Shown here: one piece after another, positions 2,050-58,714 of the stretch
Layout of the letters: the number at the start of each line of letters is the position of its first letter
How positions within the stretch are numbered: position 1 is the stretch's first letter
Assembly (NCBI RefSeq): GCF_016903815.1
Contig: NZ_CP069973.1
Source: Escherichia coli
GTDB taxonomy: Bacteria > Pseudomonadota > Gammaproteobacteria > Enterobacterales > Enterobacteriaceae
Length of the DNA: 64,000 nucleotides
Direction: 5' to 3' (one strand)
Notes under the pieces: generated by a model
What the model saw: the letters and a program-made list of their open reading frames with translations, nothing else
Told to the model about the DNA's origin: nothing
Database searches by the model: none
Program-made: the position numbers and the translations under genes

Positions 2050-2506
2050 GATTCATTTCGCAAATGTGCTGACATTTTCCCCTCTAATCCGTACCATACA
2101 CGCCACAGTTTTTATATCAGATTTCTTATGCTGGGCGTTCCGGCATGACGCATACTCTTCTGATGCCATATAACGAATTGAGTCGCTTTTAAATGTCGCA
2201 AAATCAAGAAATTAGTAAGAAAGAACAATACAACCTGAACAAGTAAGGGCAAAAATCACAACTCTCTGACTCATAAGTATTTTACTTATTTTTCAATGTG
2301 TTAAATATCATCAGCGACAACAATAAGCTACGATAACCCACTCTTTTTTTGCCCCTTTTTTGCCCCTTTTGCAGCGCTTTGCCCCATTTTTGCCATCAAC
2401 AATTTTCCTCATCAAGTCATTTCAAAGCCTAATAGGTGCCCTACTTTTTTCCTCAGTACCACGTCGCCAGCAGGAAACAACCTAATCCCGGTTCGGATCT
2501 AAAATT

Positions 2507-9531: not shown

Positions 9532-11912
9532 TAGATTGACTCCCCCACCTGAGCATCAGTCAATGCCTTGTGCCATATTCTGAAATTCCTGACATGACCA
9601 AATAAATGACGTAACCCGGCTGTAGTCTGGCCTCCAATACGGATAATTGCGGTGTTCTGAATACAGGACCATGTGGTTTTTGTTTCGCTGGATATATGCC
9701 CGTTACTTACTGAGCACGTAGACTGCTCTGACTTTACACGCATCCCCATAACCATTTTTTCAAGCGATGCGTTTTCGTTTACCCGTCTGTTAGCTCCTCC
9801 AATATCGCAATAAGGAAATCCGTCGTAATCTGTTGAACGACCGAAGCCAAGAATAATAGCCGCTCCGGTTTGATGACCGCCGGTATCAAAAACACGTGGC
9901 GCTGCATTTGGCGTTTTATACCAGTTCTTATGTACCTCACAAAGAACCGTAAAAGGAAGATTATAAAGATTATTCTTAATTGGAACTGTAACTATATCGC
10001 TTGCGCGGGTCGCCGCCGTCGCTCCTGATATAATAAAAGATGATACACAAGGCCCATCTTCTACTTGTGGGGTGGCCAGATAAATATAGTCACCAGATAC
10101 GGTTGCCCCGCTCTGCTTAGGAGAATACTGTATCTGAGAGCCTATTTTTAACTCCCCATCAATTGCCTGAATTGTTGCCTCTGCAAAAATCCATCCGGTA
10201 GCTTCGTCCTTTCTGACTCTCGCTGTAATCCTTGAGGCAGCACCGCCTGTCATATTAATTTCAAGCGTTTGTGTATCAATATACGCATCACCAAGAAAAG
10301 TTGTTGCGCTACCGTCATATTTATCAAACCGGATACGCAACCTTACCTGCAGTTCTGTTTTAAAACGACATGAGGTTGTCACGTGTTTATTATCGCCTGA
10401 GACATCAACTGACTTTGTTGCAGCAATTGATGCCATATTAATGGCTGAGGTTTGCCCAATCAGAGAATCGTTGCAGACAAACTTTCCATAGGTAAAACCA
10501 AAATTATCCGTCCCTGTTTCGGGCACATCCATATTTGACGATCGCCCCCAACTGGCAGGGCTTTCCGAATTGAGCATGTAGTTTGTTCTTTGCCCCTCAA
10601 TAAGCAGGCCATCACGTTCAAATCGTGGCTCGTCAATGGCAGCCTCTGTCAGCACACCAGATTTGTTAATATAGGTTGCTTTCGATGCACGTTTAAACTT
10701 AACAACCTTGTCGCCAGGCATCGTTATTTCATCATCACCAATAACAATTTTTTTATATGATGGCGAAAAGCCCGTAATCATATCCAGCGAATCGTTAAAT
10801 GGTATCCACACATCAGGCAGCGGCTGTAAGACATATTTATACGGCTCCGCAGCCTGGCTTGCGTACTCTCTGGCTGCATCTTCGCTTGCTTTAGCTGCCG
10901 TCTGGCTTGCTGCCGATGCTTTCGCTGAGTTCGCAGCCGCTGTTTCGCTCACCTTTGCGTTGGTTTCACTGGTTTTTGCTGCTTTTTGACTGTTAGCTGA
11001 TGCAGTGGCAGAAGCAGCCGCCGCGCTTGCAGAACTGGCTGCGGCACTCTCGCTTTGGGCCGCTGCATCCTGACTGCTTTTCGCCGCAGTTTCACTGGCT
11101 TTGGCATTCGTTTCGCTGGTCTTCGCTGCCGTCTGGCTGGACTTTGCGTTAGTTTCACTCGTCTTCGCAGCTTTCTGGCTGTTAGCCGCAGCAGTTGCTG
11201 ATCCAGCTGCTGAAGTCGCAGAACCGGCTGCCGCGCTCTCGCTTTCAGCTGCTGCAGCCTGGCTGTTTTTTGCCGCAGTTTCACTGGCTTTGGCATTCGT
11301 TTCGCTGGTTTTCGCTGCCGTCTGGCTGGACTTTGCGTTGGTTTCGCTCGTCTTTGCGGCTGTCTCACTGTTTTTCGCGTTGGTTTCTGATTTTTTGGCT
11401 GCTGTCGCAGAGTTTGCCGATGCAGTCTTTGAGGTCGCTGCCGCCTGTGCACTATTAGCTGCATTCGTTTCTGAGGTTTTCGCCGCGTTCTTCGATGATG
11501 CCGCTGCAGTTTCGGATTTCTTTGCCGCCGCTGCGCTCTGAGAGGCGGCTTCGGCGTTGCGTGCCACTTCTTCCACCATTGCCTCAAAACGACGCAATGC
11601 CTCCGGCATGACATCCTCTTCCGTCATGGCACCGAGAAAATCATTCAGCGTACCTGGTCTGGAGCCTTCATAGACGGTAATGGTCCCGGCATGTGAAGGC
11701 GGAAAACCTTCAACCAGCAGGATGACGCTGTACTGGCCATGCTCAACATCCATGCTGTAACGCCCGGCTTCATCCGGATTTTCAGAGGCCACCGTGTTCA
11801 CCAGTACCGTGGTGCTGTTACGCTTTGCCTTCAGTTGAATAGTGCAGTTCTGTATTGGTTTTCCCGCACAATCTTTCAGCACACCTGAGATTTTTACTGC
11901 TGCCATATCCAC
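9531..11912 (-). CDS. stf: Side tail fiber protein (lambda Stf-like N-terminus, repetitive central region)
   Basis: 793-aa ORF; N-terminus MDMAAVKISGVLKDCAGKPIQNCTIQLKAK... like lambdoid Stf; central Ala/Ser/Thr-rich degenerate repeats (AAKTSETNAKSS...). Confidence 0.8.
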   Translation of the reverse strand: MDMAAVKISGVLKDCAGKPIQNCTIQLKAKRNSTTVLVNTVASENPDEAGRYSMDVEHGQYSVILLVEGFPPSHAGTITVYEGSRPGTLNDFLGAMTEEDVMPEALRRFEAMVEEVARNAEAASQSAAAAKKSETAAASSKNAAKTSETNAANSAQAAATSKTASANSATAAKKSETNAKNSETAAKTSETNAKSSQTAAKTSETNAKASETAAKNSQAAAAESESAAAGSATSAAGSATAAANSQKAAKTSETNAKSSQTAAKTSETNAKASETAAKSSQDAAAQSESAAASSASAAAASATASANSQKAAKTSETNAKVSETAAANSAKASAASQTAAKASEDAAREYASQAAEPYKYVLQPLPDVWIPFNDSLDMITGFSPSYKKIVIGDDEITMPGDKVVKFKRASKATYINKSGVLTEAAIDEPRFERDGLLIEGQRTNYMLNSESPASWGRSSNMDVPETGTDNFGFTYGKFVCNDSLIGQTSAINMASIAATKSVDVSGDNKHVTTSCRFKTELQVRLRIRFDKYDGSATTFLGDAYIDTQTLEINMTGGAASRITARVRKDEATGWIFAEATIQAIDGELKIGSQIQYSPKQSGATVSGDYIYLATPQVEDGPCVSSFIISGATAATRASDIVTVPIKNNLYNLPFTVLCEVHKNWYKTPNAAPRVFDTGGHQTGAAIILGFGRSTDYDGFPYCDIGGANRRVNENASLEKMVMGMRVKSEQSTCSVSNGHISSETKTTWSCIQNTAIIRIGGQTTAGLRHLFGHVRNFRIWHKALTDAQVGESI
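10850..11560. repeat. Degenerate tandem coding repeats inside stf
   Basis: Repeated gcagcc/gctgcc-rich units encoding AAKTSETNAK-type repeats; they generate spurious ORFs on the opposite strand. Confidence 0.6.
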
Positions 11913-11970
11913 TCCACAAAAAAGCCCGCCTGAACCGGCGGGCTGTCATAACACTGTGTTACCTGGCTAA

Positions 11971-12570
11971 TCAGAATTTATAACCGACACCCACGATGAA
12001 ACCGTCAGTGCGCCAGTCACCACTGCCGGAGCCTTCATAAGCAATATCAATGGCCACGGATTCGGTCGGGTTAAACTGCACGCCAGCCCCCCACGCCAGA
12101 GACGTGTTGCTGTGGCGACCGTCATCACTTCCGGTCAGCACATCGTGCGTTTTCCCCTTGCTGTCAGTTACGCGGAGATAATCCCCGGAAAAAGTTGAAA
12201 CACGGCTGTAAGCCACACCTGCCATCGCATAAGCACTGAACCATTCATTCACGCGTACAGACGGCCCCGCCATCATGCTGAACCAGCGGTTACGCACTGA
12301 ATCTTCATGCCAGCGGGTATCGCTGTAATGCGTTTTTTGCTCATCTTTGGCATTGGCATAACTGAATGACGTCACCAGCCCCAGCGTGTCCGTAAATTCA
12401 TAACGGTATTTCACGTTAATGCCCTTCAGGTCATCGTTGCCGGGCATATCAGTATGGGTCTGAAGATACCCGGCGCTTAGTGTGGACTGATGCTCTGCTG
12501 CGCTCGCTGGCGTACCAGCGGCGACCAGCCAGACTACTGTGGACAGAATAACAGCACATAATTTACGCAT
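11971..12570 (-). CDS. lom: Outer membrane protein Lom (Ail/Lom family)
   Basis: 199-aa ORF with signal peptide, beta-barrel pattern and C-terminal ...GVGYKF; position after J as in lambda. Confidence 0.85.
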   Translation of the reverse strand: MRKLCAVILSTVVWLVAAGTPASAAEHQSTLSAGYLQTHTDMPGNDDLKGINVKYRYEFTDTLGLVTSFSYANAKDEQKTHYSDTRWHEDSVRNRWFSMMAGPSVRVNEWFSAYAMAGVAYSRVSTFSGDYLRVTDSKGKTHDVLTGSDDGRHSNTSLAWGAGVQFNPTESVAIDIAYEGSGSGDWRTDGFIVGVGYKF

Positions 12571-12637
12571 AATTACCTCTCGCTTTTCTGCAATAAAAAA
12601 GGCGCCATTTCTGGCGCCCGTATCTGGGTTATAAAAT

Positions 12638-15600
12638 TCAGCTAATCGTGATGCCTGCAGTGGCTTTCTTCATCACAACAACCAGCAAATCGCTGATACT
12701 TGCTGTGGGATACCAGCCATTTACCCACCATGCTGATACAGAAAACTCCAGTGTCATTACGCCACTGCCTGCAGGCATATCAATAACACCCGTGTAAATC
12801 AGAGTATTATCCAGAGCCGTTCGGTTATAAATTTCAGCCCCGTTTTTCTTCACTATCAGGCGGCATGACGAATAAGTATCGCTATTCTCCCGTTCATGTC
12901 TGGCACCGCTGAAAGCCACCGCTGGAATAACAATTTGCCGGTCAAACGGCTGATCGTCATAAACCCTGACGGTAATGGTCCCTGATGGCCACCGCTCCGG
13001 TGCACGGGAGTCCCGGGGGAAAGCTTTGCCCACTGTTTTAACGAGATCGCCTTCAATCTGGTTCGCGGACAGTTTTCCCAGAACCCGACAGTTCTCGTTA
13101 ATCGTGACGTTGTTGAGCGTCCCGGAGTTCGCATTCACGCTACCGCTGATATCGGCATTTTTCGCCGTCAGTCGCCCGTCCGGTGTCAGGGAAAATGCCG
13201 GAGGATTACCGCCGCTGGTAATGGTGGGAGCCGTCAGATATTTCAGGAACACTTCATTCATGAATATCTGATCGCCCTGACCAACAAACATCGGCTTTGT
13301 GTTGCCATTCGCAGGATTAATCATCGCAATCCTGTCCGCCGCCAGCAGCACCTGACTCTGCATGCCGTCGGGGGTGTTCTCAATACCGGCACCGATACCC
13401 GCAATATAAAGGCGTCCGTCCTGCATCTGCTGCAGCTTCACTGCCCACATGCTGTTCAGGTTATTATTTGTATCAACCTGAACCTTCTGTATCTGCTGGA
13501 TCGCTGCACTCTGGTCTTCCAGTTTCTTATTGACGGTCTGCGTGATTTCATTGCTGACATCCGTAATGGACGTCCTGATTTCAGCCAGGTCAGGCGCAAG
13601 CTGACCGTTATCAATCTGCGTCCACAGCTCCTGAGCCAGATGGGTTTTCCCTATCTCGCCTTTGAAAAAATCCAGATAGCCGGATGCATCATCACTCGGC
13701 TGACCAACAGCCTCCACGAATGCCGATTTGCCAACGGTGTTCACACTGCGAACGTAAAAATAATAATCATGGCCCGGTTTGATATTGATACTGGCGGCTA
13801 TCCAGTACAGCCCCGTGCCAAGATAGCTGGCTGTGGTTTCAACCTGCCTGATATCGGTAATCCGCTTTTCCGAGAACCAGAACTCAAACTGTACCGTCGG
13901 GTCATAAACGGCAAGATGCGGCGTGGCGGTTATCTGAAAATACCCCGGCGTCAGCTCAATCCGCGACGGTGCTACCGGTGCGGCAATCCGGAACGATACC
14001 GACGCCGGATCGCCCTGCTGTCCCCACGCATTTACCGCCCGGACTGTCAGCGTGTACCGCCCCAGCGCCAGTTGCGTGAAGCGGTATGTGGTTTCCGTCG
14101 TCCGGGCCGTGCTGACCAGCCGCTCACTGCCGTCATCCGCTGCCACGGTCAGGCGAAGCAGGAAGCTCACGCCCTTCACCACCTTCGGCGTGTCCCAGCG
14201 CGCCAGCACCTGATATTCCCCGCTGTCTGCGGTGACTTCGGCGGTCAGGTGCTGCACCGCTGGCGGCGTGACACCATTCACCGTGCCGCTCTGGTCGCCG
14301 TCAAAGTGCGCCCCGTTATCCACGATGGCTTCTTTTTCCGGTACATGCTGCACGGCAGTGATGGCATACGTGCCGTCATCGTTCTCACGGATACTCACAC
14401 AGCGGAACAGGCGCTGGCGCAGCGTCGGCAGCTTCAGCCCCCACACACTGTATTCTGCAACGCCGTCAGGAACCCGGTTCACTTTCACCTTAAGTCCGTC
14501 GGTGACGGACTGAACCTCCACGCTGACCGGATTACCACTTCCGTCAACCAGGCTTATCAGCGTGGTACCGGAGGATGGCAGCGTGATTTCACGGTCGAGC
14601 GTCAGCGTCCGGGTCTGGCTGTTCACCGCCAGCACGCGACCACCGGTGCTGATACCGGCATAGTCATCATCACAGATTTCAATGACATCGCCCGGTACAT
14701 GGCGAAGCCCTTCGGCACCCACGCTGAAGTCCACGGTCTGCGTTTCCAGCAGTTCCGTTTTAATCAGCCACAGCCCGGCGCGGTGCGCCTGCCCCCGGCT
14801 GGTACAGCCAAAGGCATCCATCTTCGTGACGTTACGACCGTAACGGAGAATGGCCTGCGTATCTTCAACAAGCTCTGTCGCCGTCTCCCAGCCGTTATCC
14901 GGGTCAATCCAGTTCACCTCAACGGCATTATGGCGGTCCTTCAGGGCGCTGAAGCTGTAGCGGAACGGCGCGCCATCATCCGGCATCACCACATTACTGT
15001 GGTTATAGGTCCACACCTTATCCGACGGTCGGTCCTGCACGAACGTCAGCGTCTGCCCGTTCCATACCAGCATACAGCGCATCGCCGAACAGAAATCACT
15101 GAGCACATCCCACGCCTTGCGCTGTGTGGTCAGGTACGCATTACAGGTGATGCGCGGCTCCGTGCCGCCAAAGCCGTCCGGCACTGACTGGTCGCAGTAC
15201 TGGCCGATGACATACAGCGCCCATTTGTCCACATCCGCCGCACCAAGACGTTTCCCCATGCCGTAGCGTGGATGGGTCAGCATATCCCACAGACACCAGG
15301 CCATGTTATTGCTGTATGCTGGCTTAAACGTTCCGTCCCAGATACCGCTGTATTGCCGAGTCTGCGGGTTATAGTTCGATGGCACCTGCAGAATGCGCCC
15401 GCGAAGATGATAATTACGGCTCACCTGCTGGCTGCCGAACTGTTCCGAGTCCACCTGCACGCCGACCAGTGCCGTGTTCGGGTAGCACTGTTTCACATCG
15501 ATGATTTCAGTGTATGACGACCAGAGCGTTTTGTTCTGCAGCTGGTCTGTGGTGCTGTCCGGCGTCATCCTGCGCATCCGGATATTAAACGGGCGCGGCG

Positions 15601-16117
15601 GCAGGTTATCCACCACAACCGAGGCCAGATACTGTGAAGTGGTTTTACCCTTAATGGTGATGTCTTTTTCCGTCACCCAGCCACCGTTACGTTGTATCTG
15701 AACCAGCAGGCGGACTTCCGATGGATTCCTGTCCCCCTTTGAGGTGGTTTCCACCAGTGCCTGCACGCCGAAAGTAAAACGCAGACGGTCAATGTTTGCC
15801 GACGTGATGGTCCGGGTTATCGGCGTGTCATATTTCACTTCTGTACCGAGCACCGTCTCGGAGCCGGAGGATTCAAATCCCTCCGGCGGTGTCTGCTCCT
15901 GCTCACCGGCCCGGAACACCACCGTGACGCCGGATATATTGGTATTCCCCTCACTGTCCAGCACCGGCGTACTGTTCAGCAGCACGCTTTTTAATCCATC
16001 CACCGGACCTTCAACCGGCCCTTCGCTGATGGCATCGATCACACTCAGCAGCTGCGTGGACTTCAGGTTGTCCTTCGCTTCGCGCGGGGTATGCCCCTTA
16101 CTGCTGCCTTTACCCAT
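12638..16117 (-). CDS. J: Tail tip host specificity protein J
   Basis: 1159-aa ORF collinear with lambda gpJ, following I. Confidence 0.9.
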
Positions 16118-16177
16118 TCGTCATGCTCCATAAACGATAAAACCGCCCGGAGGCGGTTTCACATAAAACATTTTGCA

Positions 16178-16819
16178 TCAGCGACCAATCACCACAACCT
16201 GACCACCATCCCCTTCGTCTGCCGTGCTGATCTCCTGAGAAACCACGCGTGACCCCACGCGCATTTCACCGTACAGAACCGGCAGAACATTGCCCTGGGC
16301 AACCATGTTATCCAGTGAAGAAAAATAGGTGTTCTGTTTGCCGTTATCCGTTGTCTGTGTGCGGGGAGTTCTGGGTTTAGGGGCCAGCATCTGTGCAACA
16401 CCGCCAAGCGTCATACTGGCACCGAGAGAAAACAGCAGATTACTCGCCATAATTCCTACCCCCGGCATCCATATAGCAACCGCCATAACAGCCGCCCCCA
16501 GCACAGCCTGAAACACACCGCCACTTTTGGCTCCTGCCAGACGCGGCACGATATGGATCACGGCACCATTTTCCAGCGGCTCATTAAGACGGGCAGACAA
16601 TTCGGTTTCACCTGCATCACGCCCGGCAATGCGTACCTGGTACCAGCCGTCGCTCAGTTTCTGACGAAATGCCGGGATCTGCATGGCCAGCGCCCGGATG
16701 GCTTCGGCCCCCGTTTTCACTCGAAGGTCGATGCGGCGGCCAAATCGTTGTAAATCCCCGTAAAGGCAGATGCGTGCCATGCCCGGTGACGCCAGAGGGA
16801 GTGTGTGCGTCGCTGCCAT
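16178..16819 (-). CDS. I: Tail assembly protein I
   Basis: 213-aa ORF, lambda gpI-like, overlapping K as in lambda. Confidence 0.85.
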   Translation of the reverse strand: MAATHTLPLASPGMARICLYGDLQRFGRRIDLRVKTGAEAIRALAMQIPAFRQKLSDGWYQVRIAGRDAGETELSARLNEPLENGAVIHIVPRLAGAKSGGVFQAVLGAAVMAVAIWMPGVGIMASNLLFSLGASMTLGGVAQMLAPKPRTPRTQTTDNGKQNTYFSSLDNMVAQGNVLPVLYGEMRVGSRVVSQEISTADEGDGGQVVVIGR

Positions 16820-17460
16820 TTGTCGGTGTACCTCTCTCGTTTGCTCAGTTGTTCAGGAATATGGTGCAGCAGCTCGCTGTCACCACAGTAAATGGCGGCA
16901 TGATTCGGCACCGATGAACCAAAACAGCACAGCAGCACATCGCCCGGCTGCGCCGCTGACAGCGGCACCTGATACAGCCCTGCGGCCTCCAGATTATCCA
17001 GATAGAGATTCTGACCGTTACGCCACCAGTCATCCTCACGATGAAAATCCGGCATCTCAATCCCCGCCAGATGGTAAGCATCCCGGAACAGCGTGTAACA
17101 GTCCGTCACCCCGTGCTCAAAGAGCCGCCCGGTGAGATGCGGCACACAGCGGAATTTATGAATCGCCCCCCGGCAGACCAGCCACCACGGCAAATCACTC
17201 TGCACCTGCAACCGCCGGTCGGCCTCACTCAGCCAGGGCAGACCACCGGGATGGCTGTGCACCAGCGCCACAATCTCACCCTGCATTTCTGCCCGCAGCC
17301 AGTCCTCCGGCGACATCCGGAAATACGCCTCCGGCTCACCGGAGATATTTACGCAGGGAAGATATCTGTCTCCCTCCGGCGTTCTCACCACAAAGCCGCA
17401 CGACTCCGCTGGCGCACATCGCCGGGCGTGCGCCAGAATCGCTGATTCTGTCTCTGTCAT
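16717..17460 (-). CDS. K: Tail assembly protein K (NlpC/P60 and JAB-like)
   Basis: MTETESAILAHARRCAPAESCGFV... with HSHP motif; lambda gpK-like. Confidence 0.85.
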   Translation of the reverse strand: MTETESAILAHARRCAPAESCGFVVRTPEGDRYLPCVNISGEPEAYFRMSPEDWLRAEMQGEIVALVHSHPGGLPWLSEADRRLQVQSDLPWWLVCRGAIHKFRCVPHLTGRLFEHGVTDCYTLFRDAYHLAGIEMPDFHREDDWWRNGQNLYLDNLEAAGLYQVPLSAAQPGDVLLCCFGSSVPNHAAIYCGDSELLHHIPEQLSKRERYTDKWQRRTHSLWRHRAWHASAFTGIYNDLAAASTFE

Positions 17461-17465
17461 GGGAT

Positions 17466-18164
17466 TTACTGCGAAAGTTTGTTAATGGAAAGGAAGCCGC
17501 CAAAGTTGCCGACGTTATTGCGAAACTTACAGCCACTCAGGCATTTGCTGCATTTATCCTTCGTGATATCGGTTGTCGGCTGGTCATATTCATCCGCGAC
17601 AGCCGGACCGTGATAACCGCACTCATCACCGCGATAGGTCCAGGTGCAGGTGTTGGCCAGCATGATACGTCCCGGAAAAACAGCGCCATCCGTTTCCGTC
17701 GGCGTGGACAGTACAAAGGAGGCACTGACCGCGCTCAGTTCGCTGCACTGCTCGATGCGCCAGCGGCTGATCACCTCCTGCTCCGGATCGGCGTCGCTGT
17801 TTCCGTTGACGAAGTTCACCGCATCCAGAAAACGGGCATAAACCTTACGCCTGACCACCGTTCCGCCGACCAGACTCTGCAGGTCTTCCGCCATCCCGGT
17901 GACCATACCGTACAGGTTAGAAACCGTCAGCGTGGGGCGCGTACTGGTACCTTTGCCATTCAGTTCGAAACCACTCCCCTGAATGGGATACGCCTGATAC
18001 TGTCGCCCCTGCCAGGTGACCGGCTCACCTTTTTCGTTCTGCTCATTACAGAAAAAATAACGTTCTCCACCAACCTCTGTCAGATCGATTTCCCAGAGCA
18101 CCACGCAGGCAGACTGCTCCGCACGGGTGCATTCATTCAGTGTTTCCTGTCGGATATCCTGCAT
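17466..18164 (-). CDS. L: Minor tail protein L
   Basis: 232-aa ORF, lambda gpL-like, with Cys cluster near the C-terminus. Confidence 0.9.
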   Translation of the reverse strand: MQDIRQETLNECTRAEQSACVVLWEIDLTEVGGERYFFCNEQNEKGEPVTWQGRQYQAYPIQGSGFELNGKGTSTRPTLTVSNLYGMVTGMAEDLQSLVGGTVVRRKVYARFLDAVNFVNGNSDADPEQEVISRWRIEQCSELSAVSASFVLSTPTETDGAVFPGRIMLANTCTWTYRGDECGYHGPAVADEYDQPTTDITKDKCSKCLSGCKFRNNVGNFGGFLSINKLSQ

Positions 18165-18493
18165 CAGTTCACCACCTGTTCAAACTCTGCGCTGAACTCA
18201 ACACGCAGCATACTGACCCGCGACGACCATTTTGCGCAGGTCACCTTTATCTGCCGCCACTCATAAGGCGGCGTCCACAGAAAGGCTTTCCAGCCCCCGT
18301 GCTCTTCCAGAAACGACTCCAGTACCGTGGCCTCCTCACGGGGGACAGAAAGCGTCACGCTGTACGTTTTCAGGTTGGCATTCAGCCCGGCAGGCGCTCG
18401 CTGGGAATAGCCATCACCAAAGCGCACCTTTCTTACAGAAGGGGCCGAAGCCACATCCATACCGGGTTTCACTTTCCAGCGGAAGGTTTTCAT
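18164..18493 (-). CDS. M: Minor tail protein M
   Basis: 109-aa ORF, lambda gpM-like, between H and L. Confidence 0.9.
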   Translation of the reverse strand: MKTFRWKVKPGMDVASAPSVRKVRFGDGYSQRAPAGLNANLKTYSVTLSVPREEATVLESFLEEHGGWKAFLWTPPYEWRQIKVTCAKWSSRVSMLRVEFSAEFEQVVN

Positions 18494-38988: not shown

Positions 38989-39001
38989 GCTCGTTCTCCA
39001 C

Positions 39002-41619: not shown

Positions 41620-41643
41620 GTCTTACACCTCTTGTAATTACAA

Positions 41644-41949: not shown

Positions 41950-42151
41950 AGGAACGTAACACGTTTTATGCAACACCCGCATGCGGCAGAAAATTATTGC
42001 CGAACGTTTACCCCTGTCAACAAGCTTTACTTTCTGAGGCGCGCCAGCCCGCGAGGAAAACAATCTGAACATCAAACAATTAATGACACAAGAAATACGA
42101 TTAAAGATTTTTTTGTGCATGCCGATAGTGCTTTTTTAAAAGGAGAAATCT

Positions 42152-42484
42152 ATGTCTGTCACAATTCAGGGAAATACCTCAACCGTTATTTCAAACAACT
42201 CCGCCCCGGAAGGAACATCAGAAATAGCCAAAATCACAAGACAAATTCAGGTGCTGACTGAAAAGCTTGGGAAAATCTCATCGGAAGAGGGGATGACGAC
42301 ACAGCAGAAAAAAGAAATGGCTGCATTGGTACAGAAGCAAATTGAAAGCCTCTGGGCTCAACTGGAGCAGTTGTTAAGGCAGCAGGCAGAGAAAAAGAAT
42401 GAAGACGCGACAGTTCAGCCTGATAAAAAAGAAGAGAAAAAAGACGATACAAATACCGCTGGCACCATTGATATTTACGTCTAA
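42152..42484 (+). CDS. flxA: FlxA-like protein
   Basis: 110-aa ORF MSVTIQGNTSTVISNNSAPEGTSEIAKITRQIQVLTEKL... Confidence 0.8.
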   Translation: MSVTIQGNTSTVISNNSAPEGTSEIAKITRQIQVLTEKLGKISSEEGMTTQQKKEMAALVQKQIESLWAQLEQLLRQQAEKKNEDATVQPDKKEEKKDDTNTAGTIDIYV

Positions 42485-42879
42485 GTGACAGCCGTATTGT
42501 GGCCCTCATCGGGCCACTTTTCGCCATCAGCCTTTTCTTTAAAGACATATTATCTTTGTATCATTTCTGATAGTTAACATTACAAGATATAAGTAATGGA
42601 CGCACTCCCAATTAGTCTATTTAAATCGCCACGAGTTTAACTGACAACCCATGATCAATTATGAATTGCAACTATTTCTGTAGTCACTTTTGTGGGGACA
42701 GTCCACAAAACTGCCAACTTCCGCTTCTTGCTCTTAGCGGACATTAGCATAGGCTATTTACCATAACGCCTCATTACGCGCACCGCCCAGACTGACTCAG
42801 CGCGTTTCTGGCATATCCCCGGTAAAACAAGTAACAAACCACCCGAAAATGAACACCAGAAACGCGACTTAAGAATCTA

Positions 42880-44300: not shown

Positions 44301-44717
44301 TGTTAACAATAGCCTGCTTCTCCGTGCCTTTCGGCACGTAAGAGGCTAACCTACATGTGTCTAGCATGAAATTGGCCTCAGATTAATGTTAAGCGTCTTG
44401 CAGGACGCGTAATGTTAACTGGGGCTTTTCTCTATCTGCCTTTGGTGTTCGTGCCCGAGGCAGATAGCCTCAAGCACCCGCCGTGATTCTACAAAAACAT
44501 TACCCACCTTTCCAGCAATTCACAACAACTCCATGCAAATAGTAAGTAGAATAATAAGTTATTAGTATTAGCAATTTACTTAGTTTCTAATTTGTGCCAA
44601 TGATTTTCATTTTTGCATGAAAAATACCTTAACATTTTATATTTACTTACTATTTGTAAGCCCCATCAGTTCTTTCTGATGGCGGCTGGTATTTCAGTTC
44701 CAGATATAGTATATGCT

Positions 44718-45746
44718 TTACGCCTTAATAGGGTTAATCACATTTCCGCTATCCGTACCATAGTATTTTTTTGTAGTCATGCCTTGTTTATAATAATCAT
44801 TTAACAGTTTGAGAAAGTTTCTTCCTTGCCTCTCATCTTCTATGACTAATTTACCATGCTCATTGGTCTTAAACTCTTCGTTCTGAAACATTTTTAGCAC
44901 ATCATTCATAGCTTGAACATCATTCTTTTCCAGAACCGTATGGTTACCTTTCTCAGCGATATGAGTGAGAATTTTTCTCAGTGATGGCTTATGAAGAATA
45001 GCTTGTTCAATAACATCTAAACCTTCAATAAGATCAAGTTCTTTAATTGTATTTAATGTTTTTTGTGCAGCTTCTGTAAACTCAACCTCCAAGCCTACAA
45101 TAGCCTCAAAACTTTTCTTATGAAATACATAAAATTGATCTTTTATATAAATACAATCGATTTTGTCATCAAAATTGACTGCGCTGCCATCAAATGATCT
45201 TAACTCTTTATCTGTTTTATCAAACAAAGCGAATACGCGCTGAGTCATATTTTGTGGTTCATTTGTTGTGACTTTCCCCCTGCTGATTTTTCGGAAAGAA
45301 TAAGTGACGTCAGCCCCCTTTTGGACTTTAATACAATAGGCCCACAAATCATTCTGAACCTCAGCAAGAGAGGTAAGTACAACTGGTTTATCATTCTTTA
45401 TATCGTTATTAATAACTTTTGAAAACGATATCGCGTTATTCATAGCATAGGCATAAATTTTATTATCAATATCATCATCAATAACAGTATGCTTTTTCAT
45501 CACAATATCATCTTTCGAAGCATGAGAAATAATCTGGTTTGATAAAGTATACTTAAAAAATTTAGCAATATCTGGAGCGATTGGAGCTTTAATGATTTTA
45601 AAATCGAATTTATCAACAACTCTTGCGGTTCTACTCATACCCGCTTTAAGATGTCTAGTAATGAAATACAACGATATTTTCGCCGCATCATCATCCTTAA
45701 GTTGCTCAGCATACTCTAATAATTCTTCAAGCTTTAACATTTTCAT
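44718..45746 (-). CDS. Soluble partner protein of candidate defense operon (KwaB-like by architecture, unverified)
   Basis: 342-aa Lys/Asp-rich AT-rich ORF; start overlaps the stop of the upstream membrane-protein gene (ATGA). Confidence 0.5.
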   Translation of the reverse strand: MKMLKLEELLEYAEQLKDDDAAKISLYFITRHLKAGMSRTARVVDKFDFKIIKAPIAPDIAKFFKYTLSNQIISHASKDDIVMKKHTVIDDDIDNKIYAYAMNNAISFSKVINNDIKNDKPVVLTSLAEVQNDLWAYCIKVQKGADVTYSFRKISRGKVTTNEPQNMTQRVFALFDKTDKELRSFDGSAVNFDDKIDCIYIKDQFYVFHKKSFEAIVGLEVEFTEAAQKTLNTIKELDLIEGLDVIEQAILHKPSLRKILTHIAEKGNHTVLEKNDVQAMNDVLKMFQNEEFKTNEHGKLVIEDERQGRNFLKLLNDYYKQGMTTKKYYGTDSGNVINPIKA

Positions 45747-46357
45747 TCCTTATGGGATTCAGCATAAAAAAGTTTTGGGCCCACGTCCTCAACATCAAGA
45801 AGATCATCTTCCTCCAAATACTTTGATTTAGTCAAAACCATACCAGTGCGTTTTTTGTCGCTTTCTAAATCCAAATATGTAACTTGATATAAAGTATAAT
45901 TAATACTTATTGTAGGATTTATAAGTATCATGCTTGAATTAATATATATTAAAGCCGTTACCGTTAACAATATTGCTATAGGTATAACATTAGTTAAAGT
46001 GGATAGATCCTGAAATACAAACGGAATTATATATGTAAAAAGATAGCTTATTGATTCATTGTTTTTATTTTCAATATCTATAACTCTTACAGTTCTACCA
46101 CTAGTGGCGCATCGACGTTTTATATTTTTTAAAAAAATTGTTAATCCTACAATACCAAATAATGATAATACACCAATGACACTGACCGCGCCAAAGTATT
46201 TAAAGAAAATAGTTAATGATTCAACACTTATACCTTTCCAATTTAAATAGCTTCTATAAGTATACAATTGCACAAAACACATGATAAAGAATAGGGGAAG
46301 GTATGACACTATAAATAGCGAAACTCTAGCACCTAAATGTAGTTTATTTACTCTCAT
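45743..46357 (-). CDS. Four-helix membrane protein of candidate defense operon (KwaA-like by architecture, unverified)
   Basis: 204-aa ORF with four hydrophobic stretches (about residues 12-32, 55-76, 103-115, 124-140) and an acidic C-terminal tail. Confidence 0.5.
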   Translation of the reverse strand: MRVNKLHLGARVSLFIVSYLPLFFIMCFVQLYTYRSYLNWKGISVESLTIFFKYFGAVSVIGVLSLFGIVGLTIFLKNIKRRCATSGRTVRVIDIENKNNESISYLFTYIIPFVFQDLSTLTNVIPIAILLTVTALIYINSSMILINPTISINYTLYQVTYLDLESDKKRTGMVLTKSKYLEEDDLLDVEDVGPKLFYAESHKE

Positions 46358-46565
46358 AACTACCCCACAGCCTACACGTCTAGTATTTTATGTTATTTCG
46401 AATAATTATGCATCAGATTACCATCCTACAATTGTGCATAAAACGAGCATTTTGCTGATTTTTCTGCGGATGCCTGAGACAGACAACCTCAAGCACCCGC
46501 AGCAATTTTACTTAACTCCCGCTACCTCGCCAATATGAAATCAATAAGAAAGGTGCTCCATAAAA

Positions 46566-47252
46566 TCACTCCTTCTCTTCTTTATCGTAGTGGAGTTGAC
46601 CAATTTTGATAAGAGGGCGTCCCTGAGATTTGCGGTGTAGATTGGTATCGCGCAGAGAATACACACAGCCACAATATTCCTGCTGATAGAATTTTTCGCG
46701 CTTGCTGATTTCAATCATGCGGGACGAGCCGCCCTGCTTGCGCCAGTTATAATCCCAGTACACCATGCCCGGATAATGCGCGACGGCTCGCCGCCCACAG
46801 TCGTTAACCTGCTGCATATTTTTCCAGCGTGAAATGCCCAGTGAACTGCTGATCACACTGAAACCATTTTCAGCAGCGTACAGCGCTGTCCGCTCAAAAC
46901 GCATGTCAAAACACATGGTACAACGGATCCCCCTCTCGGGCTCCCATTCCATTCCTTTGGCACGTTCAAACCAGTTGTCTGTGTCGTAATCAGCATCAAT
47001 AAATGGCACGCCGTGTTGTTCAGCAAAGCGAATATTCTCATCCTTACGAATTAAATACTCTTTCTGAGGATGAATGTTCGGGTTGTAGAAAAAGATGGTA
47101 TAGTCGATTCTCGAGGCCTGAAGTGCCTCCATCACTTCACCGGAACATGGAGCACAGCAAGAGTGCAGTAGTAGTTTGTTTGCCCCGTTTGGGAGCTCCA
47201 ATTTAGGCCGTTTGAAATCAGCAATAGTCATAAATATTTTTATTGGGGTCAT
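46566..47252 (-). CDS. DUF208 / QueH-like protein (putative epoxyqueuosine reductase family)
   Basis: [11 protein letters not shown] and FFYNPNIHP motifs plus additional Cys (CTMC, CGC) as recalled for the QueH/DUF208 family. Confidence 0.6.
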
Positions 47253-51896: not shown

Positions 51897-54368
51897 ATGA
51901 GTAAAGTCTTTATTTGCGCCGCTATTCCTGACGAACTGGCAACAAGGGAAGAAGGCGCTGTGGCTGTAGCCACAGCCATTGAAGCTGGCGACGAACGCCG
52001 TGCTCGAGCAAAATTTCACTGGCAATTCCTGGAACATTATCCGGCTGCTCAGGACTGCGTTTATAAATTTATTGTCTGCGAGGATAAACCTGGCATACCC
52101 CGCCCTGCCCTCGATTCATGGGATGCTGAATATATGCAGGAAAACCGCTGGGATGAGGAGTCTGCTTCTTTTGTCCCGGTTGAGACTGAATCCGATCCGA
52201 TGAACGTCACTTTTGACAAGCTGGCCCCTGAAGTACAGAACGCTGTCATGGTTAAGTTCGACACATGTGAAAACATCACCGTTGATATGGTTATTAGCGC
52301 ACAGGAATTGTTGCAGGAAGACATGGCAACATTCGACGGACATATCGTTGAAGCGTTGATGAAAATGCCAGAAGTTAACGCCATGTATCCGGAGCTTAAG
52401 TTGCACGCCATTGGGTGGGTTAAGCATAAATGTATTCCTGGTGCTAAATGGCCCGAAATTCAGGCAGAGATGCGCATCTGGAAAAAACGTCGCGAAGGTG
52501 AACGCAAGGAAACCGGAAAATACACGTCTGTTGTTGATCTCGCCCGCGCCAGAGCCAATCAACAGTACACTGAAAATTCAACAGGAAAAATCAGCCCGGT
52601 CATTGCTGCCATTCATCGCGAATACAAGCAGACATGGAAAACACTGGATGACGAACTGGCCTACGCTCTCTGGCCTGGTGATGTGGATGCCGGAAACATT
52701 GACGGCAGCATCCATCGCTGGGCAAAAAATGAAGTTATCGATAACGACCGCGAAGACTGGAAGCGTATCTCGGCATCAATGCGCAAACAGCCTGATGCCC
52801 TTCGCTACGACCGCCAAACTATTTTTGGCCTTGTCCGTGAACGTCCGATCGACATTCACAAAGATCCCGTAGCACTGAACAAATATATCTGCGAATACCT
52901 GACGACAAAGGGCGTGTTTGAGAATGAAGAAACAGACCTGGGCACTGTTGATGTTCTCCAGTCATCAGAAACACAAACTGATGCAGTGGAAACTGAGGTA
53001 TCTGATATCCCAAAAAATGAAACCGCGCCGGAAGCTGAACCATCTGTAGAGCGTGAGGGGCCGTTCTATTTCCTCTTCGCAGATAAGGACGGAGAAAAAT
53101 ACGGTCGCGCAAACAAACTTTCTGGTCTGGATAAGGCACTGGCTGCTGGCGCCACTGAAATCACAAAAGAAGAATATTTTGCCCGAAAAAATGGCACATA
53201 CACGGGCTTACCGCAAAATGTAGATACCGCTGAAGATTCAGAACAACCAGAGCCGATGAAAGTTACCGCTGACGAAGTAAACAACATTATGCAGGCAGCC
53301 AATATCATCCAGCCTGACGCCGATAAGTTGCTTGCTGCATCACGTGGTGAATTTGTTGAAGGGATTAGTGACCCGAATGATCCGAAATGGGTTAAGGGGA
53401 TCCAGACCCGCGATTCTGTGAACCAGAACCAGCATGAATCGGAACGGAACTACCAAAAAGCGGAACAAAACAGCCCAAATGCGTTACAAAACGAGCCAGA
53501 AACGAAACAGCCTGAATCAGTGGCGCAACAGGAAGTGGAAAAAGTCTGCACCGCCTGCGGTCAGACCGGCGGCGGCAACTGCCCTGATTGTGGCGCGGTA
53601 ATGGGCGACGCAACATACCAGGAAACATTCGATGAAGAGTATCAGGTTGAAGTTCAGGAAGATGATCCGGAGAAAATGGAAGGCGCTGAACATCCACACA
53701 AGGAGAACACTGGCGGCAATCAGCATCACGATAGCGATAATGAAACTGGCGAGACGGCAGATCACTCAATTAAGGTGAACGGTCATCACGAAATCACATC
53801 CACCAGCAGGACGTGTGACCATCTAATGATCGACCTTGAAACCATGGGAAAAAATCCTGATGCCCCGATCATCTCAATAGGTGCAATATTTTTCGATCCG
53901 CAAACCGGAGATATGGGACCGGAATTTAGTAAGACTATCGATCTGGAAACTGCTGGCGGAGTCATTGATCGGGACACCATTAAATGGTGGCTTAAGCAAT
54001 CACGCGAAGCGCAATCTGCCATTATGACCGATGAAATCCCGTTAGATGATGCACTGTTACAATTGCGGGAATTTATCGACGAAAACTCCGGTGAATTTTT
54101 TGTTCAGGTCTGGGGAAATGGAGCCAACTTCGACAACACGATTTTGCGCCGTTCATACGAACGGCAGGGGATCCCCTGCCCGTGGCGTTACTACAACGAT
54201 CGCGATGTACGCACAATCGTTGAGCTGGGGAAAGCCATAGACTTCGATGCCAGAACGGCTATTCAATTCGAAGGTGAGCGCCATAATGCACTTGATGACG
54301 CCCGTTACCAGGCAAAATACGTTTCAGTTATCTGGCAAAAACTGATCCCGAGTCAGGCTGATTCTTAA
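51897..54368 (+). CDS. Prophage exonuclease-family protein (YdfE-like N-terminus, DnaQ-like 3'-5' exonuclease C-terminal domain)
   Basis: 823-aa ORF; C-terminal DLETMG...[13 protein letters not shown] resembles the DEDDh exonuclease fold; acidic low-complexity middle region. Confidence 0.65.
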
Positions 54369-54440
54369 TGTTCAACTGTCGCCGGTTGTGACTGGTATTC
54401 TGCAACCGGCGCTCGTCTAATGTAAGAGATAAAGAAATCG

Positions 54441-54692
54441 ATGAGCGAAGTAATCATGATTGTCTCTCCCGGCAAATGGGTATCCGAAGAGCAGTTAATT
54501 GCGCTGAAAGGAATAAAAAAAGGTACGTTAAAAAAGGCCCGGGAAAAATCGTTTATGGAAGGAAGGGAATATAAGCATGTCGCTCATGACGGTATGCCAT
54601 GGGATAACAGTCCATGCTTTTACAACCTGGAAGAAATTGATCGCTGGATTGAGCGCCAGGCATCAGCAAGACCAAGACGTCATCTTACTTGA
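54441..54692 (+). CDS. Excisionase-like small DNA-binding protein
   Basis: 83-aa ORF immediately upstream of the integrase region; Xis-like character. Confidence 0.45.
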   Translation: MSEVIMIVSPGKWVSEEQLIALKGIKKGTLKKAREKSFMEGREYKHVAHDGMPWDNSPCFYNLEEIDRWIERQASARPRRHLT

Positions 54693-54792
54693 CTAAAAGC
54701 CACACTAACGTAACCGGCTCATTTAAACCGTCTGGTCTGTTTCCTCCGGCTCTACAAAAATAATGTCCATCATTTTTAATGGACACTATCGT

Positions 54793-55440
54793 ATGAAACA
54801 CCGGACCTGGATCACTGAAGCTTTACGTCTTCACTTTGAAGAACATTTACCCCGGGTTGTGGCCGGGCGTCGCCTGGGTGTACCAAAATCAACAGTTTGT
54901 AGTATGTTCGTGCGCTTTCGGAGAGCTGGCCTTTCGTGGCCTTTGCCCGCAGGCATGTCGGAGCAGGAACTTGATGCCTGCCTTTACGGACAATTTTCCA
55001 CGGTACCAGTCGTACGTCCTGAAAGCACCGTTATATCCGAAGCCCCCGTGGTAAAAAAACGTCCCCGGCGGCCCAACTTCCCTTATGAGTTTAAAATCGC
55101 CTTAGTGGAGCAGTCACTGCAGCCCGGAGCCTGTGTGGCGCAGATCGCCCGGGAAAACGGAATCAACGATAACCTGCTCTTCAACTGGCGCCATCAATAC
55201 CGGAAAGGTGGCCTGCTGCCTTCCGGAAAAAATATGCCGGCACTGCTTCCCGTGACGTTAACGCCGGAGCCGGATAATAAAATCCCGGCCCCCGCACAGG
55301 AACCAGAGCAGATAAATACACCGTCCGACAGTCTGTGTTGTGAGCTGGTTCTGCCGGCCGGAACTCTCAGGCTTAAAGGTAAACTGACGCCGGCGTTATT
55401 ACAGACACTTATCCGCGAAATAAAAGGGAGCAGCCACTGA
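54793..55440 (+). CDS. IS66-family accessory protein TnpA
   Basis: HTH-containing ORF with KRPRRPNFPYEFKIALVEQSL...; start uncertain (54763 or 54793). Confidence 0.7.
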   Translation: MKHRTWITEALRLHFEEHLPRVVAGRRLGVPKSTVCSMFVRFRRAGLSWPLPAGMSEQELDACLYGQFSTVPVVRPESTVISEAPVVKKRPRRPNFPYEFKIALVEQSLQPGACVAQIARENGINDNLLFNWRHQYRKGGLLPSGKNMPALLPVTLTPEPDNKIPAPAQEPEQINTPSDSLCCELVLPAGTLRLKGKLTPALLQTLIREIKGSSH

Positions 55441-55787
55441 TGATATCTCTCCCTGCAGGTTCGCGTATCTGGCTGGTTGCAGGTATCACCGATATGCGAA
55501 ATGGCTTTAACGGCCTGGCATCAAAAGTTCAGAACGTCCTGAAGGATGACCCGTTCTCCGGACACCTGTTCATCTTCCGCGGACGCCGGGGTGACCAGAT
55601 AAAAGTGTTGTGGGCTGACAGTGACGGACTGTGCCTCTTCACCAAACGCCTGGAGCGGGGCCGCTTCGTCTGGCCAGTCACCCGTGACGGCAAGGTGCAC
55701 CTTACTCCGGCTCAGTTATCCATGCTTCTTGAAGGTATCAACTGGAAGCACCCGAAACGAACGGAACGCGCTGGAATCCGCATATAA
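55440..55787 (+). CDS. IS66-family accessory protein TnpB
   Basis: 115-aa ORF MISLPAGSRIWLVAGITDMRNGFNGLA... Confidence 0.85.
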   Translation: MISLPAGSRIWLVAGITDMRNGFNGLASKVQNVLKDDPFSGHLFIFRGRRGDQIKVLWADSDGLCLFTKRLERGRFVWPVTRDGKVHLTPAQLSMLLEGINWKHPKRTERAGIRI

Positions 55788-55806
55788 CCCGTTGTAAAGT
55801 GAGGAT

Positions 55807-57378
55807 ATGGACACCTCACTTGCTCATGAGAACGCCCGCCTGCGGGCACTGTTGCAGACGCAACAGGACACCATCCGCCAGATGGCTGAATACAACCGCC
55901 TGCTCTCACAGCGGGTGGCGGCTTATGCTTCCGAAATCAACCGGCTGAAGGCGCTGGTTGCGAAACTGCAACGTATGCAGTTCGGTAAAAGCTCAGAAAA
56001 ACTTCGTGCAAAAACCGAACGGCAGATACAGGAAGCACAGGAGCGAATCAGCGCACTTCAGGAAGAAATGGCGGAAACGCTGGGTGAGCAATATGACCCG
56101 GTACTGCCATCCGCCCTGCGCCAGTCTTCAGCCCGTAAACCGTTACCGGCCTCACTTCCCCGTGAAACCCGGGTTATCCGGCCGGAAGAGGAATGCTGTC
56201 CTGCCTGTGGTGGTGAACTCAGTTCTCTGGGATGTGATGTGTCAGAGCAACTGGAGCTTATCAGCAGCGCCTTTAAGGTTATCGAAACACAACGTCCGAA
56301 ACAGGCCTGTTGCCGGTGCGACCATATCGTGCAGGCACCAGTACCTTCAAAACCCATTGCACGCAGTTATGCCGGAGCGGGGCTTCTGGCCCATGTTGTC
56401 ACCGGGAAATATGCAGACCATCTGCCGTTATACCGCCAGTCAGAAATATACCGTCGTCAGGGAGTGGAGCTGAGCCGTGCCACACTGGGGCGCTGGACAG
56501 GTGCTGTTGCTGAACTGCTGGAGCCGCTGTATGACGTCCTGCGCCAGTATGTGCTGATGCCCGGTAAAGTCCATGCTGATGATATCCCCGTCCCGGTCCA
56601 GGAGCCGGGCAGCGGTAAAACCCGGACAGCCCGGCTGTGGGTCTACGTCCGTGATGACCGTAACGCCGGTTCACAGATGCCCCCGGCGGTCTGGTTCGCG
56701 TACAGTCCGGACCGGAAAGGTATCCATCCACAAAATCACCTGGCCGGTTACAGCGGTGTGCTTCAGGCCGATGCTTACGGTGGTTACCGGGCGTTATACG
56801 AATCCGGCAGAATAACGGAAGCCGCGTGTATGGCTCATGCCCGGAGAAAAATCCACGATGTGCATGCAAGAGCGCCCACCTACATCACCACGGAAGCCCT
56901 GCAGCGTATCGGTGAACTGTATGCCATCGAGGCAGAGGTCCGGGGCTGTTCAGCAGAACAGCGTCTGGCGGCAAGAAAAGCCAGAGCCGCGCCACTGATG
57001 CAGTCACTGTATGACTGGATACAGCAACAGATGAAAACACTGTCGCGTCACTCAGATACGGCAAAAGCGTTCGCATACCTGCTGAAACAGTGGGATGCAC
57101 TGAACGTGTACTGCAGTAATGGCTGGGTGGAAATCGACAACAACATCGCAGAGAACGCCTTACGGGGAGTGGCCGTAGGCCGGAAAAACTGGATGTTCGC
57201 GGGTTCCAACAGCGGTGGTGAACATGCGGCGGTGTTGTACTCGCTGATCGGCACATGCCGTCTGAACAATGTGGAGCCAGAAAAGTGGCTGCGTTACGTC
57301 ATTGAACATATCCAGGACTGGCCGGCAAACCGGGTACGCGATCTGTTGCCCTGGAAAGTTGATCTGAGCTCTCAGTAA
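55807..57378 (+). CDS. IS66-family transposase TnpC
   Basis: 523-aa ORF with N-terminal leucine zipper, CxxC zinc-finger region and DDE core. Confidence 0.85.
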
Positions 57379-57433
57379 ATATCAATACGGTTCTGACGAG
57401 TCGCTTACACACTAACTAATGAGAGAAGTTGAA

Positions 57434-58714
57434 ATGAAATATCCGACAGGCGTGGAAAACCATGGAGGGAAATTACGTATCTGGTTTGTTTATAAAGGCG
57501 TAAGAGTCAGGGAAAACCTGGGGGTTCCTGACACAGCAAAAAACAGGCGCGTTGCAGGTGAGCTACGCGCCTCTGTTTGTTACGCAATAAAAACTGGTGT
57601 TTTCGACTATGCAAAACAGTTTCCCTCCTCACGCAATCTGGAAAAATTTGGTGAGACCCGACAAGATTTAACCATAAAAGAACTGGCTGAAAAATTTCTG
57701 GCACTGAAAGAAACTGAAGTCGCAAAAACATCACTCAACACATACCGTGCCGTCATCAAAAATATCCTGAGCATAATCGGTGAAAAAAATCTTGCCTCAT
57801 CGATTAATAAAGAAAAATTACTGGAGGTTCGTAAAGAGCTACTGACTGGATACCAGATCCCCAAAAGTAACTATATTGTTACACAACCAGGGAGATCGGC
57901 TGTAACTGTAAATAATTACATGACAAATCTTAACGCCGTGTTCCAGTTTGGTGTTGATAACGGTTACCTGGTAGATAACCCGTTTAAGGGGATCTCGCCA
58001 TTAAAGGAATCAAGAACCATTCCGGATCCTCTTTCGCGGGAGGAATTCATCCGTCTTATCGATGCGTGCAGAAATCAGCAAGCCAAAAATTTATGGTGTG
58101 TTTCTGTTTATACTGGCGTTCGCCCTGGTGAGCTGTGTGCACTTGGATGGGAGGACATAGATCTGAAAAATGGAACAATGATGATCAGGAGAAATTTAGC
58201 AAAAGACCGTTTCACGGTACCAAAAACACAGGCGGGAACCAATCGGGTCATTCATCTTATTAAGCCAGCAATCGACGCTCTCCGGAGTCAGATGACATTA
58301 ACGAGACTGAGCAAAGAGCATATCATTGATGTTCACCTCAGAGAGTATGGCAGAACAGAAAAACATAAATGCACCTTTGTTTTTCAACCTGAAGTGTCAG
58401 CGAGAGTAAAAAATTATGGTGACCATTTTACCGTTGACTCAATAAGGCAGATGTGGGACGCAGCGATAAAACGTGCCGGACTCCGCCATCGAAAATCATA
58501 TCAGTCGAGACATACTTATGCCTGCTGGTCGCTGACAGCTGGTGCTAACCCGGCATTTATAGCAAACCAGATGGGCCATGCAGATGCGCAAATGGTATTT
58601 CAGGTATACGGAAAATGGATGTCTGAAAACAATAATGCACAGGTAGCTTTGTTAAATACACAGTTAAGCGAGTTTGCCCCAACCATGCCCCATAACGAAG
58701 CAATGAAAAATTAA
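57434..58714 (+). CDS. intQ: Prophage tyrosine integrase
   Basis: MKYPTGVENHGGKLRIWFVYKGVRVRENLG... arm-binding N-terminus and C-terminal catalytic region (...HTYACW...); the IS66 element ends 25 bp upstream of the start. Confidence 0.8.
   Translation: MKYPTGVENHGGKLRIWFVYKGVRVRENLGVPDTAKNRRVAGELRASVCYAIKTGVFDYAKQFPSSRNLEKFGETRQDLTIKELAEKFLALKETEVAKTSLNTYRAVIKNILSIIGEKNLASSINKEKLLEVRKELLTGYQIPKSNYIVTQPGRSAVTVNNYMTNLNAVFQFGVDNGYLVDNPFKGISPLKESRTIPDPLSREEFIRLIDACRNQQAKNLWCVSVYTGVRPGELCALGWEDIDLKNGTMMIRRNLAKDRFTVPKTQAGTNRVIHLIKPAIDALRSQMTLTRLSKEHIIDVHLREYGRTEKHKCTFVFQPEVSARVKNYGDHFTVDSIRQMWDAAIKRAGLRHRKSYQSRHTYACWSLTAGANPAFIANQMGHADAQMVFQVYGKWMSENNNAQVALLNTQLSEFAPTMPHNEAMKN

Follow-up and report, generated by a model that had tools for sequence, protein, structure and literature searches.

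ISCro1 between xis and int of a Qin-related Escherichia coli prophage that also bears the marks of an inter-prophage inversion

The window, i.e. the whole 64-kb stretch of Escherichia coli DNA analysed here (contig NZ_CP069973.1), carries a prophage in which the putative excisionase gene xis and the integrase gene int are separated by a complete insertion sequence (Table 1). Both genes belong to a series, dicB-ydfD-exonuclease-xis-int, that lies on one strand throughout, and the prophage also holds, as cargo, sitABCD and a Kiwa-like defence gene. Window positions 30873-43105 are 99.8-99.97% identical to K-12 Qin, the order int-rspB-rspA is that of K-12, and alignment with K-12 identifies int as the full-length counterpart of the pseudogene intQ; by these comparisons, the prophage is a full-length relative of E. 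coli Qin. The predicted integrase has an Arm-DNA-bind_2 domain at residues 4-67 (Pfam, E 1.3e-23) and a Phage_integrase domain at residues 201-392 (E 7.8e-18). Because the arm-binding domain begins at residue 4, the ATG at 57434 can be taken as the true start of int, with which the PGAP start agrees; the right end of the insertion sequence lies 25 nt upstream of this codon, while the target site begins 9 bp past the xis stop codon.

Table 1. Features of the window that bear on the insertion and on the two ends of the prophage
Feature	Position	Strand	Description
ttcC, displaced 5' fragment of ttcA, Rac-type attachment flank	2193..2243, approximate (mapped from K-12)	+	adjoins uspF
Tail-gene segment, minor tail L to gpJ, lom, tail-fibre N-terminus	10617..18186	-	likely inversion crossover zone
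xis	54441..54692	+	83-aa putative excisionase; Pfam DUF1233, E 1.9e-31; PGAP 'excisionase family protein' WP_000005552.1
Target-site duplication, left copy ACACTAAC	54702..54709		empty site has one copy
ISCro1 (IS66 family), complete	54710..57408	+	2699 bp; 100%-identical full-length copies in other replicons
IRL GTAACCGGCTCATTTAAACCGT	54710..54731	+	left terminal inverted repeat
tnpA	54763..55440	+	225-aa accessory protein; HTH_Tnp_1 at residues 102-159 (Pfam); N-terminal extension
tnpB	55440..55787	+	115-aa IS66 accessory protein
tnpC	55807..57378	+	523-aa IS66-family transposase; PGAP WP_029392005.1
IRR	57387..57408	-	right terminal inverted repeat; reverse complement = GTAAGCGACTCGTCAGAACCGT
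Target-site duplication, right copy ACACTAAC	57409..57416		perfect 8-bp match to left copy
int	57434..58714	+	intact 426-aa tyrosine integrase; WP_021523105.1
Qin-type attachment core GAAATCCATAA	58752..58762	+	int-proximal prophage end, adjoins rspB

The three genes of the element are closely packed on one strand in the order tnpA-tnpB-tnpC, with the start codon of tnpB overlapping the stop codon of tnpA in an ATGA motif. All three products score above the curated NCBIfam cut-offs: TnpA reaches 295.8 bits against IS66_access_TnpA (cut-off 150), TnpB 128.9 bits against IS66_TnpB (cut-off 50), and TnpC 476.6 bits against transpos_IS66 (cut-off 180). The GC content of the element is 55%, against 43-48% in its flanks. 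IS66 elements typically terminate in imperfect inverted repeats of about 20-30 bp that start with GTAA(G/C)CG, and the ends of the element in the window follow this pattern, with 22-nt repeats placed at its exact ends, of which 16 positions out of 22 match (GTAACCGGCTCATTTAAACCGT versus GTAAGCGACTCGTCAGAACCGT).

The name of the element is derived from 100%-identical copies on E. coli chromosomes and plasmids, which RefSeq labels 'IS66-like element ISCro1 family', and from its length of 2699 bp; on this basis, the element is ISCro1. It shares with ISCro1 its length, the 8-bp duplication and the tnpA-tnpB-tnpC layout, and no difference is detectable in RefSeq naming or length, so that only the insertion site is particular to the window. 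ISCro1 is widespread in E. coli chromosomes and in F and IncHI1 plasmids, and a near-full-length copy of the element was found in about 1490 genomes. First noted in Citrobacter rodentium ICC168, as the most expanded insertion sequence of that strain (PMC3072379), ISCro1 has been described as a 2699-bp element with an 8-bp duplication (PMC12115866); the copy at the afa locus was given as 2,824 bp (PMC8764528), as opposed to 2699 bp both in the window and in PMC12115866. Four further copies, retrieved with their flanks, have the same first and last bases as the element in the window, and are bordered by different 8-bp duplications in three cases and by a 9-bp duplication in the fourth. The intact reading frames and ends of this copy, together with the many identical copies at varied sites, suggest that it is probably active. 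The preliminary description of this DNA, made from its letters alone, had recognised a three-gene, 2699-bp IS66-family element with imperfect terminal inverted repeats, lying between an excisionase-like gene and int at 25 bp from the int start; all of this is borne out, and the family assignment is sharpened to ISCro1.

The same description had read the 8-mers that flank the element as a target duplication. The number of copies of ACACTAAC says little by itself, as the window contains a third one (three occurrences in 64 kb, with approximately one expected; three were reached in 11 of 100 shuffles). What is decisive is position: full-length, 100%-identical copies elsewhere, on chromosomes and plasmids of unrelated context, fix the boundaries of the element, and both copies of ACACTAAC abut these independently fixed ends. 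Furthermore, an 800-bp query in which the two flanks were joined through a single ACACTAAC matched many E. coli genomes at 100% identity in one aligned piece, and 2485 genomes hold the uninterrupted junction over at least 80% of the query. Related prophages thus show this junction with the 8-mer once and with no duplication. In the IS-free strain 50579417, the spacer from xis to int measures 34 bp; the Xis and Int accessions (WP_000005552.1 and WP_021523105.1) are the same there as in the IS-bearing strain 7/2. An account in which the element would be ancestral to the xis-int junction and the flanking 8-mers a coincidence could appeal to the third occurrence of ACACTAAC and to the shuffles, yet it is refuted by the exact single-copy empty site, by the excess of uninterrupted junctions (2485 genomes against 75 with the element), and by the own, different 8-bp duplications of three of the four other copies, which leave it a negligible probability.

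The identical insertion, with identical flanks, is annotated by RefSeq in 75 complete genomes, and the 30 listed among these are all 100% identical to the window over 3601 bp. One IS-bearing isolate, KY1497, belongs to ST405 (PMC7035895). Another, strain 7/2 (NZ_CP023820.1), differs from the window by three mismatches and, structurally, by an extra IS1 near window position 32650. Inherited within this group of genomes, the insertion is an ordinary and already known one, of a named insertion sequence in annotated genomes, and the question that it raises is that of its effect on the recombination module that it divides.

The native spacer between xis and int, 34 bp long and without a terminator, implies that int would have no promoter of its own, and that transcription would have to enter through xis. 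It is therefore structurally supported that any int promoter should lie in or upstream of xis, and would now be 2.7 kb farther off. The insertion sequence has the orientation of int, and no intrinsic terminator was predicted on the + strand between positions 54200 and 57555; with the packing of its reading frames, these features make read-through into int plausible. In addition, the ribosome-binding region and start codon of int were left untouched by an insertion 25 nt upstream. A sigma-70 consensus scan of both strands between 54200 and 57700 returned no match, as against 2.8 by chance; this crude consensus test also missed the tnpA promoter and is blind to activator-dependent promoters, and its empty result neither places an int promoter within xis nor reveals an outward one at the right end of the element. 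In ST131, ISCro1 situated 440 bp upstream of afaA was associated with a fall of approximately 2.5 log2 in the afaA transcript, and promoter-lacZ activity was also lowered (PMC8764528); this sole experimental case found of expression next to ISCro1 is compared here regardless of the orientation of the insertion sequence there. Taken together, these observations suggest that Int is probably supplied in smaller amounts, and no longer in step with xis or with prophage induction, although its production need not have ceased. This effect, in its direction as well as its size, is inferred.

The two ends of the prophage provide a separate line of evidence regarding excision. On the left, ompN-uspF is followed by ttcC, a flank that in K-12 marks the right end of Rac and that is reversed here (window 201-2395 corresponds to K-12 1437000-1434806 in reverse, with 99% identity). 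At the int-proximal end lies GAAATCCATAA, the 11-mer that bounds K-12 Qin as a direct repeat; a second exact copy was not found in the window, where the three copies with one mismatch, deep in the prophage, are at chance level. A search for att repeats, in the form of 11-mers common to the int-proximal end and the leftmost 12 kb, yielded just a chance match, and it is from this failure that the two ends were recognised as being of different types. The ancestral backbone has the terminus between uspF and rspB, which lie about 200 kb from each other. Strain 7/2 contains the reciprocal product, some 200-250 kb away, in the order ttcA-intR-xisR-recT-recE, tail genes, pinQ-ydfK-ynfT-ydfJ', with the partner Qin-type core at ydfJ' in inverted orientation. 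The 7.6-kb tail segment of the window prophage is 98.6% identical, in inverted orientation, to that of this partner (blastn, window versus 7/2 1560001-1610000), and gpJ and Lom have identical protein accessions in both prophages. The window prophage is, as these alignments indicate, a chimera generated by an inversion of approximately 250 kb between a ttcA-site and a ydfJ-site prophage. Given att sites in inverted orientation, a tyrosine recombinase such as Int flips the segment between them and does not excise it. Because the ends of the prophage are mismatched, Rac-type on the left and Qin-type on the right, its Int would be unable to release it in one piece, whether ISCro1 is present or absent.

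Both states of this inversion are encountered among close relatives. Four IS-bearing genomes were compared, all of them complete assemblies in which both types of junction are self-consistent, an assembly error across the 7.6-kb repeat being possible in any single genome: 7/2 and KY1497 are inverted, while AR_0006 and B20105 are not, and resemble K-12 in that ydfJ' and a core in direct repeat occupy the left end. Matched attL and attR direct-repeat cores are present in the latter two genomes and lacking in the window. Strain 50579417, which lacks the element, is chimeric in the same manner as the window prophage, from which it could be supposed that the inversion simply predated the insertion sequence; this order of events was dropped in view of the two IS-bearing genomes that are un-inverted. 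The presence of both states among IS-bearing genomes points to an inversion that is recurrent or reversible, the insertion sequence having been carried through at least one flip. It would follow that ISCro1 is relevant to excision solely in the un-inverted state, where the att cores match.

The explanation that is held here with high confidence is that ISCro1 transposed into the xis-int spacer of a relative of Qin, and that the prophage is also a reciprocal inversion chimera. In this scheme, ISCro1 jumped into the 34-bp spacer and generated its usual 8-bp duplication. Placed at the end of the putative early-left transcription unit (dicB-exo-xis-int), and without the space for a private promoter, int would since have been separated from all native promoters by 2.7 kb of foreign, translated sequence, and uncoupled from xis. 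The most likely result would be a reduced and deregulated supply of Int, with residual read-through from the genes of the insertion sequence, a clean knock-out being less likely. Independently of these events, homologous recombination across the 7.6-kb inverted repeat, in which the partner was a ttcA-site (Rac-type) prophage beyond the terminus at a distance of about 250 kb, would have produced the inverted state. In this state, each end of the prophage corresponds to a different integrase, and the most that Int and Xis could do is to invert the stretch from one core to the other.

Two other accounts of what the insertion does to the module differ from this explanation in opposite directions. 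In the stronger one, which was also that of the preliminary description, the insertion sequence immobilises the prophage: severed from its promoter, int would no longer be expressed, Int synthesis would be abolished, and the prophage would be defective for excision, or domesticated. The short native spacer, with its lack of an independent int promoter, and the lowered downstream transcription in the afaA case (PMC8764528) are consistent with this possibility; moreover, in AR_0006 and B20105, whose direct-repeat cores are matched, the insertion sequence would be the obvious lesion, and the same xis-int module was lost from K-12 Qin by an IS2-associated deletion. Nevertheless, the ends of the window prophage are mismatched irrespective of ISCro1, and the IS-free strain 50579417 is equally chimeric; in addition, int is whole, matches the allele without the element exactly, and lies downstream of a co-oriented element with no predicted terminator on the + strand, where read-through is plausible. 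Immobilisation by the insertion sequence is consequently considered unlikely, and the claim that ISCro1 by itself makes the prophage excision-defective is not upheld; in the window, such a defect would be redundant with the mismatched ends.

In the weaker account, ISCro1 would be neutral for Int, with transcripts from the early-left operon, the tnpA promoter, or both crossing the element, and with a module that works wherever att sites are matched. The shared orientation, the overlapping or closely spaced translated reading frames and the terminator-free + strand between 54200 and 57555 would permit such transcription; the translation start region of int is unaltered, and the 30 genomes listed as carrying the insertion, identical as they are over 3601 bp, contain no decayed int. 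However, the addition of 2.7 kb of transcript usually reduces distal expression, downstream expression fell in the one experimental case of ISCro1 that was found (PMC8764528), and a recent date of insertion could by itself account for the undecayed int. Neutrality is rather unlikely on balance; the reading preferred here, that of a reduced and deregulated Int supply in a prophage whose ends are determined by the inversion, lies between the two.

A further and decidedly improbable variant is that the insertion sequence has rewired the module, such that int is expressed constitutively by read-through from tnpABC and is uncoupled from xis. If this were true, the presence of Int without Xis would bias the system against excision and favour retention of the prophage with its sitABCD and Kiwa-like cargo, and Int could even help to flip the terminus segment of approximately 250 kb through the inverted Qin-type att cores. 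In that case, the insertion sequence would have turned a module for excision into one for stabilisation or inversion, and this IS-driven switch would have become fixed in a multidrug-resistant clone including ST405.

The preferred explanation, namely insertion into the spacer in addition to the inversion, can be placed alongside three known systems. K-12 Qin, which carries the intQ pseudogene, IS2E and ydfE, is of the same lineage and occupies the same site by rspB, and its recombination module has also been struck by an insertion sequence. K-12 retains an IS2 remnant where the 3' end of the exonuclease gene, xis in full and the ~120 bp at the start of int have been irreversibly deleted, whereas the window prophage has a simple insertion of ISCro1, with the duplication intact and with xis and int whole; unlike K-12 Qin, it also retains a full set of head and tail genes. 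Phage lambda, whose int is expressed either together with xis, from pL, or by itself, from pI, a CII-dependent promoter inside xis, offers a second point of reference. As in lambda, the early-left operon ends with xis and then int, both on one strand, next to the att site; the Xis of the window prophage differs in being of the DUF1233 type and not a lambda Xis, and the CII-type motif TTGC-N6-TTGC was not found between 54001 and 54710. Finally, in E. coli O157 and other lineages, large inversions that span the terminus arise by recombination between oppositely oriented lambdoid prophages. The lineage of the window resembles these cases in its 7.6-kb inverted repeat, its reciprocal chimeras and the occurrence of both orientations among close relatives, and differs from them in that the partners are a ttcA-site, Rac-type prophage and a ydfJ-site, Qin-type prophage, one of which carries ISCro1 in its xis-int spacer.

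Insertions within prophage recombination modules are a familiar route of decay, of which K-12 Qin is itself an example. The value added by the present case lies in the flip-flopping inversion between prophages that, beside the insertion sequence, decides whether the prophage can be excised, and it carries a lesson for annotation, in that a judgement on excision ability made from the int region alone can be misleading. The ISCro1 insertion shared by these genomes should, in addition, serve as a handy clonal marker for the lineage.

The exo-xis-int module into which ISCro1 has inserted has also been altered in K-12 Qin, where it has been lost by an IS2E-associated deletion that leaves behind the pseudogenes ydfE, insD7, and intQ. 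This deletion is a separate IS strike, on a module and in a prophage lineage that K-12 shares with the window. The K-12 counterpart of the gene for the 823-aa 'exonuclease' is the truncated ydfE, and DNA likeness of this gene to K-12 recE is limited to two short stretches (window 53321-53763; 84-90% identity). In some genomes, the RefSeq label for the product is 3'-5' exoribonuclease domain protein.

Prophage features and the comparison with K-12
Feature	Window position	Location or counterpart
sitABCD, iron/manganese transporter genes	~2602-6051	flanked by ttcC and the tail-fibre genes, just inside the Rac-type end
IS200C copy	36074-36778 (tnpA 36177-36635)	between ynfU and cspB
Truncated ISNCY transposase; Kiwa KwaB-like anti-phage gene and adjacent hypothetical gene; queH-like gene	43191-47231	
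823-aa 'exonuclease'	51897-54368	upstream of xis
exo-xis-int comparison	52664-57554	K-12 NC_000913.3 1650843-1651548 (L004, the K-12 locus, 24844-25549)

The TnpA protein of ISCro1 carries an N-terminal extension of approximately 100 aa (window 54763-55060) ahead of its HTH_Tnp_1 domain; residues 25-57 give a second, weak HTH signal. Residues 13-206 are spanned by the NCBIfam model IS66_access_TnpA, and the extension is therefore typical of the subgroup to which this TnpA belongs; the ATG at 54793 may be the true start codon of tnpA. The usual target duplication is of 8 bp, but one ISCro1 copy, at locus L015 (NZ_CP067399.1 1296861-1300159), is bordered by a duplication of 9 bp (ATGAAAATC). ISCro1 at the afa locus has been reported as being 2,824 bp in length (mBio, PMC8764528), as opposed to 2699 bp both in the window and in PMC12115866.

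The sitABCD genes appear to be prophage cargo; next to come are a hypothetical gene and a dinI-like gene with a frameshift. The truncated ISNCY transposase and the genes listed with it occupy the position of ydfX-dicC in K-12 Qin, an arrangement that resembles a defence or cargo island within the immunity/replication region. K-12 Qin, in addition, is uninterrupted at the ynfU-cspB point where the window harbors IS200C.

The window prophage makes up half of a reciprocal chimera, as seen from window 201-2395 and 10617-18186 together with loci L005 and L008 of strain 7/2. The chimera arises from an inversion of ~250 kb across the terminus, between the Rac-type prophage at the ttcA site and the Qin-type prophage at the ydfJ site, and it is the second of these window regions, an inverted repeat with 98.6% identity over 7.6 kb, that mediates it. 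Both orientations of the inversion are found in close relatives that have the ISCro1 insertion in common.

Between ydfO and gnsB, strain 7/2 has an IS1 that is absent from the window (site ~32644-32653), which makes the source of the window closely related to 7/2 but not 7/2 itself. At this site two window-7/2 alignment blocks overlap by 10 bp, which is consistent with an IS1 target duplication.
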